Shown here one piece after another: positions 33,833 through 34,123 of a stretch of DNA of 64,000 nt. How positions within the stretch are numbered: position 1 is the first letter of the stretch; each line of letters opens with the position of its first letter. The notes under the pieces were generated by a model. The model saw nothing but the letters and a program-made list of their open reading frames with translations. It ran no database searches and was not told where the DNA came from. The position numbers and the translations under genes are program-made. Source of the DNA: Escherichia coli (lineage in GTDB: Bacteria > Pseudomonadota > Gammaproteobacteria > Enterobacterales > Enterobacteriaceae); the NCBI RefSeq assembly GCF_030013595.1, contig NZ_CP122768.1. The stretch is one strand, 5' to 3'.

Positions 33833-34123
33833 AAACCGGCTGAATGAAGGTGAGAATTTTAAAAGACCAGAGGAGTAAACGGGATTATTAATTGCTTATT
33901 TGCATATTACTATTGAGGTTTCATAATCTTAGGAAATAAATGATACATGCGCTTTTCGGACTATTGAAAACTGCCCCTGTGCTAAATTTGTAAACCCTGC
34001 GCCGACAGGCTTGCGTAAAACTCTTTTGGTGATAATGTGAGCCTTCCCAATCCAGACTATTCCGATTTGGGATCCATTTTGCCGTCCTGGCGTGTGTAAC
34101 CGTTTTATCAAGGAATAAGCAGT

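Follow-up and report, generated by a model that had tools for sequence, protein, structure and literature searches.

The interval between yafL and yafK carries the dinJ-yafQ toxin-antitoxin pair in Escherichia coli K-12 but not in the E. coli genome considered here (assembly GCF_030013595.1, contig NZ_CP122768.1), which raises the question of whether the pair was lost from this site or was never there. A preliminary description, made by reading a 64,000-nucleotide stretch of this contig (the window), had left the choice between a pair that was never acquired and one that was cleanly lost. Its premise, that K-12 carries the pair between these two genes, is borne out by the locus of strain BW2952 (L001), which reads yafL, 209 bp, dinJ, yafQ, 155 bp, dpaA, with DinJ and YafQ at 86 and 92 amino acids. 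On the evidence below, the window very probably has the ancestral, insert-free yafL-yafK haplotype, and the dinJ-yafQ of K-12 would be a later addition on a deeply diverged haplotype.

The gene order in the window is lfhA/flhA-like (+), yafL (−), the gap, yafK, also named dpaA (+), yafJ (−), gmhA/lpcA (−) and fadE (+). The gene coordinates (Table 1) agree with those annotated by RefSeq in strain HCP5S3_I2, whose sequence has 99.89% identity to window positions 1–41077. The start codon of yafL is the ATG at 33823. Because this ATG is conserved in other Escherichia and in Citrobacter, and is the one annotated by RefSeq in HCP5S3_I2, the gap is 33824–34123, or 300 bp. The yafL-yafK gap of E. coli 042, a strain of phylogroup D, is likewise 300 bp. 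A gap of 291 bp (33833–34123) is obtained when the longest ORF is taken for yafL; the interval is non-coding, as had been described, but the length of 290 bp given for it was too short.

Table 1. Features in and around the yafL-yafK interval, with window coordinates and strand.
Feature	Coordinates	Strand	Remarks
Restriction-modification ORFs	12027–13451; 13539–14744	+; −	Pfam DNA_methylase and DNA_meth_N for one, EcoRII-N and EcoRII-C for the other
lfhA/flhA-like	30883–32976	+	ORF
yafL	33074–33823	−	ORF; secreted NlpC/P60 (C40) peptidase; Pfam NLPC_P60, E = 3e-33
Allele-specific segment	33752–33983	.	232 bp; 40% G+C (53% in the whole window); yafL 5' end and AT-rich yafL-side half of the spacer
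Whole yafL-yafK intergenic spacer	33824–34123	.	300 bp; read as a divergent promoter region without a gene
72-aa ORF	33921–34139	−	no Pfam match; antisense overlap with the yafK start codon
Conserved 140 bp upstream of yafK	33984–34123	+	probable yafK promoter and 5' leader, from sequence
Candidate hairpin in presumed yafK leader	34046–34071	+	drawn by hand; weakly supported
GCC/GGC mini-hairpin	34080–34092		4-bp helix; RNAalifold on 80 yafK leaders; invariant
yafK (dpaA)	34124–34864	+	ORF; YkuD-fold protein by Pfam

The dinJ-yafQ pair is missing from this site at both the DNA and the protein level, as the preliminary description had held. A tblastn search of the whole 64-kb window with DinJ and YafQ of K-12 gave a best match of E = 0.15, and the best match inside the gap had E = 28. 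The K-12-specific DNA had no match in the window by blastn (word size 7, E ≤ 1), and in the pairwise alignment of the window with K-12 there was no similarity between the breakpoints, the promoter of dinJ-yafQ included. Remnants of dinJ or yafQ, named beforehand as the finding that would speak against this claim, were sought by nucleotide alignment and blastn, and none was found. A dinJ-yafQ locus could have appeared as two adjacent small genes or as a degraded remnant of them, and the window has neither.

Besides the flanking genes, the gap has one ORF of at least 60 aa, which is unrelated to DinJ and YafQ. In three other Escherichia loci (L003, L004 and L005) a stop codon shortens this 72-aa frame to 21 aa. 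Since the frame is not conserved and its product has no Pfam match, we conclude that it is not a gene, and its earlier characterization as non-protein-like was apt. A search of 32800–35000 against Rfam at a permissive threshold returned two chance-level matches (E = 0.34 and 0.76), both outside the gap and far under their gathering scores. At the yafL-yafK site, then, the strain is without the YafQ mRNA interferase and the DinJ antitoxin/repressor. Taken singly, a strain without one classic mRNA-interferase toxin-antitoxin pair of K-12 has little significance beyond bookkeeping.

The window and K-12 differ by a swap of sequence that takes in 72 nt of yafL, rather than by a clean indel. The two loci occupy the same chromosomal position between the same flanking genes, and their pairwise alignment breaks at 33751/33752 and at 33983/33984. 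Between these breakpoints lie 232 bp in the window but 838 bp in K-12 (1663–2500 in L001), and the two segments are mutually unrelated. The 838 bp of K-12 contain dinJ and yafQ with their promoter, together with a yafL 5' end unlike that of the window. On the left, yafL is identical to K-12 across the 52 nt up to 33751, although the remainder of the gene is only 94.1% identical. On the right, identity to K-12 is 99% from 33984 on into yafK, and a single position differs in the 140 bp preceding yafK. The left breakpoint falls between codons 24 and 25 of yafL, so that the first 24 codons (33752–33823, 72 nt) are part of the variable segment. Since the 5' end of yafL is thus swapped along with the pair, the effect of dinJ-yafQ is not isolated by comparing strains with and without it, or by deleting it in K-12.

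With the left breakpoint inside yafL, the signal-peptide regions of YafL differ between the alleles. The N-terminus is MSSFLLGRFLHPGVFSLCVLLPLLA in the window and MSLPSIPSFVLSGLLLICLPFSSFA in K-12, followed in both by SATTSHISFSY; each has 24 residues ahead of the common SATTSH and a Cys at position 18. The motif PG..SLCV is common to the N-terminus of the window YafL and to that of Citrobacter (PGLLSLCV). Between K-12 and the window, neither the yafL 5' ends (72 nt) nor the upstream regions had significant DNA homology (z = −0.6, 0.6). The one match to stand out, and that weakly, is between K-12 and Citrobacter, where 21 of 26 positions upstream of yafL agree at an equal distance from the ATG, a score reached by 11 of 500 shuffles. 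The K-12 yafL 5' end may be a strongly diverged yafL sequence and not foreign DNA, for which these comparisons are only suggestive. The body of yafL (33074–33751) is itself unusually variable in E. coli – that of the window is 94.1% identical to K-12 and 95.3% identical to ST540, against 98.2% for the adjoining yafK-yafJ.

The relative age of the two forms was assessed by searching a single genome of each species with YafK, which gave 80 loci in the Enterobacteriaceae. In E. albertii (L005), Escherichia sp. E1V33 (L004) and a third Escherichia lineage (L003), yafL directly adjoins yafK without the pair. The spacers of these three are collinear with that of the window from end to end. Their identity to it is 76–82% in the variable segment, where 185–191 of 232 positions match, and the conserved part matches at 130–136 of 140. 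The order lfhA|yafL|yafK, with neither dinJ-yafQ nor rayT, is also that of ten Citrobacter and Phytobacter species with Flag-2. The variable segment has only 44–49% DNA identity to Citrobacter, and at such a distance it is the gene order and the N-terminal peptide of YafL that speak for orthology.

The dinJ-yafQ pair was found in one of the 80 species loci, that of Escherichia sp. MOD1-EC7003 (L006), with junctions as in K-12. The dinJ-yafQ segment of this locus is 96.8% identical to that of K-12 and its flanks are 95.7% identical. Because the segment has diverged about as much as its flanks, the insert-bearing haplotype is, by this comparison, an old one that has not spread recently, and the two forms may have existed side by side from a time before the diversification of E. 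coli. A plasmid source of the K-12 segment was sought: the high-identity plasmid matches are F-prime plasmids or stretches of chromosome recorded as plasmids, and include yafL. The other plasmid relatives (in Sphingobium, Klebsiella and others) are only 60–80% identical, and no donor was found among them.

The window spacer is thus collinear with those of insert-free outgroups, and the insert-bearing allele is limited to a subset of the ingroup, as expected where the empty site is ancestral. On this polarity, which comes from outgroup comparison and not from a genome-wide tree, the insert-free form is ancestral and the K-12 form derived. Of the two possibilities first put forward, that the pair was never acquired is favoured, because the spacer is orthologous to those of insert-free E. 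albertii and two further Escherichia lineages, and to those of Citrobacter and Phytobacter by gene order; clean loss does not agree with the exchange of 232 bp for 838 bp. "Never acquired" applies to this stretch of DNA and not to the whole ancestry of the strain, since recombination moves alleles between backgrounds, as in strain ST540 below.

Within E. coli the two forms were counted in 5,426 complete genomes, 5,424 of which have the locus. The insert-free segment of the window type is present in 2,084 of the 5,426 (about 38%) and the dinJ-yafQ segment of the K-12 type in 3,340. Together these account for all 5,424 genomes with the locus, which fits a two-state site. By identity to the window segment, the 2,084 comprise 210 genomes at 99% or more, 613 at 95–99%, 1,231 at 90–95% and 30 at 80–90%. 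The 90–95% class is a distinct sub-allele, represented among others by Nissle 1917, ST131 and ATCC 25922-type strains, of phylogroup B2. In B2 strains such as Nissle 1917 and ST131 the segment is about 92% identical to that of the window, with an 11-bp length difference. E. coli 042, which also has no dinJ-yafQ, is closer, at 97.8% in the variable segment and 99.1% in yafL. Both 042 and the B2 strains differ from the window in having rayT between lfhA and yafL.

The presence/absence polymorphism and its uneven spread over the phylogroups are already published and are ordinary. The pair has been reported from all genomes of the E/B1/A lineage and otherwise from phylogroup F only, and has been counted among acquired genes (PMC6896753). 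No type II system was common to four reference strains of different phylogroups in a study that also cites earlier surveys (PMC7167474). The toxin-antitoxin pairs of K-12 have been described as horizontally acquired inserts between core genes, with spacers of 209 bp and 155 bp listed (PMC5120126).

Strain ST540 (L084, NZ_CP007265.1, 11333–22000) has the insert-free yafL-yafK allele and an intact Flag-2 cluster. Compared with K-12 it is 99.3% identical from yafK to yafV, and its FadE, LpcA, Ivy and DpaA proteins are identical, but to the left of the yafL-yafK site, on the side of the insert-free allele and the Flag-2 cluster, identity is only 96.7%. By this pattern the site is a recombination junction in ST540, and alleles move between backgrounds. 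A phylogroup-A-like strain with the insert-free allele is an exception to the published phylogroup rule.

It is unlikely that the lineage of the window once had dinJ-yafQ and that the whole allele was then replaced, by homologous recombination, with an insert-free allele imported from another E. coli. The junction in ST540 lends this some credence, as does the mosaic identity of the window to E. coli 042 (99.1% in yafL, 95.4–96.1% in Flag-2 and 97.6% from gmhA to yafV). However, the window has no positive sign of a past toxin-antitoxin allele, and its core genes at 55004–64000 fit a background in which the pair is reportedly absent (PMC6896753). After a near-twin strain, these genes are most similar to those of 'strain 405' (99.2%), followed by K-12 (98.5%), O157 (98.3%) and B2 strains (about 98%). 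These values point to a background other than phylogroups A, B1, E or B2, which agrees with the distribution in the literature. The window has no Clermont marker, and a D-like background is no more than suggested by its similarity to E. coli 042 and 'strain 405'. A precise deletion of dinJ-yafQ from a K-12-type allele, for which it can only be said that chromosomal toxin-antitoxin pairs are in general subject to decay and deletion, is highly improbable: it would leave K-12-type sequence on both sides and cannot give the window sequence, whose 232 bp are missing in K-12 and match the outgroup spacers, and the first 24 residues of YafL are unlike those of K-12 and resemble those of Citrobacter.

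The 300-bp spacer of the window is probably a divergent promoter region in two parts. The AT-rich half adjoining yafL, which holds a block conserved within Escherichia, presumably serves yafL, and the other 140 bp would be a strongly conserved promoter and leader for yafK/dpaA. The K-12 haplotype has, besides the pair, its own yafL signal-peptide codons and yafL upstream region. It meets the sequence common to both forms at codon 24/25 of yafL and at a point 140 bp before yafK, so that the insert would have landed just upstream of the 140-bp yafK block.

The 140-bp block is conserved throughout the 80 Enterobacteriaceae loci, both in those with yafL or a toxin-antitoxin pair upstream of it and in those with neither. 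It matches the window at 130–136 of 140 positions in other Escherichia and at 112–118 of 140 in Citrobacter and Phytobacter. Its elements are a TTGTAAAC box, TTGCGT (34011–34016), a 16-nt spacer, TGATAATGT (34030–34038) and AAGGAA before the ATG, and these named blocks have the base of the window in at least 90% of the 80 species loci. TGATAATGT resembles an extended −10 promoter element, and the 140 bp are probably the promoter and leader of yafK itself. A sigma-70 promoter scan of 33650–34250 found 2 sites, not above the 1.0 ± 1.1 expected from shuffled sequence. Terminator-like matches in the same stretch sit on the yafK start codon and were set aside.

In K-12, yafK has been said to have no promoter of its own and to be co-transcribed with dinJ-yafQ (PMC5120126, Table 1), which fits poorly with a 140-bp block that is conserved in species without the pair at this site. 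Where the pair is missing from this site, transcription of yafK must start in its own upstream region, and in the window this would be from the probable promoter above and not by read-through from a toxin-antitoxin operon. We infer these promoter assignments, and any effect of the spacer form on the expression of yafL or yafK, whereas the missing pair, the two breakpoints, the orthology with outgroup spacers, the division of E. coli genomes into two forms and the conserved 140 bp are observed.

Two hairpins may form in the presumed yafK leader, the hand-drawn candidate and the mini-hairpin of Table 1. RNAalifold alone, run on the 80 yafK leaders, predicted the mini-hairpin only and not the hairpin at 34046–34071. 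For the two jointly, 91% of cells pair over 69 distinct sequences, compared with at most 49% when the partner columns are slid, and only 7 cells in the two hairpins together have a compensatory change.

A further reading, which we regard as doubtful, is that the spacer forms are an old cross-species polymorphism and not a simple gain, and, separately, that the 140-bp block with its candidate hairpin is an undescribed dpaA regulatory leader. Under the first of these, strains with the toxin-antitoxin pair would differ from the others in how they express or export the YafL peptidase, and perhaps DpaA, because the signal peptide and upstream region of yafL come with the dinJ-yafQ haplotype.

A similar arrangement is known for ccdO157, which reportedly (Mine et al., in 2009, cited in PMC7167474) lies between folA and apaH as a presence/absence polymorphism in E. 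coli. As far as can be judged from the literature, the two sites are alike in that some strains have a pair between the core genes where others have just a short spacer. They are unlike in that the alleles at the site in the window differ also in the 5' end of a neighbouring gene, yafL.

The spacer on the other side of yafL, between lfhA and yafL, is a second slot with alternative contents (rayT, hicAB or a short spacer), at a different site and with different cargo. In the window this spacer (32972–33068) is only 97 bp, with a GC-rich palindrome, CCCCTCGCCCCTTTGGGGAGAGGG, and has neither rayT nor hicAB. In K-12, 042 and the B2 strains it is 896 bp, with rayT and REP elements, and strain JX2 has the order flhA|hicA|hicB|yafL|dinJ|yafQ|dpaA. 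The short form is rare, being found in 127 of the 5,426 complete E. coli genomes, whereas the yafL-yafK form of the window is common (38%); Citrobacter and Phytobacter are also without rayT there.

The Flag-2 (lateral flagella) cluster at 1–32976 is apparently complete in the window, with a full-length lfhA of 697 aa; all that is left of lfhA in K-12 is a truncated gene, fused next to lafU. An EcoRII-type restriction-modification pair (11845–14864) lies inside the cluster, between flgA and flgM. In E. coli 042 these two genes are adjacent, and the 3-kb stretch of the window has no match in the 042 locus. In HCP5S3_I2 the lysine-N-methylase gene of Flag-2 (about 15781–16711) is annotated as frameshifted.

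On the far side of the locus, after yafV (about 40540–50000), the window has a gene for a SymE-family toxin and, behind it, an Rhs/ankyrin island that includes several Rhs fragments. Beyond 41077 the window and HCP5S3_I2 diverge, differing in the Rhs island, and the region from there to the mltD/yafC core genes is about 29 kb longer in HCP5S3_I2 than in the window.
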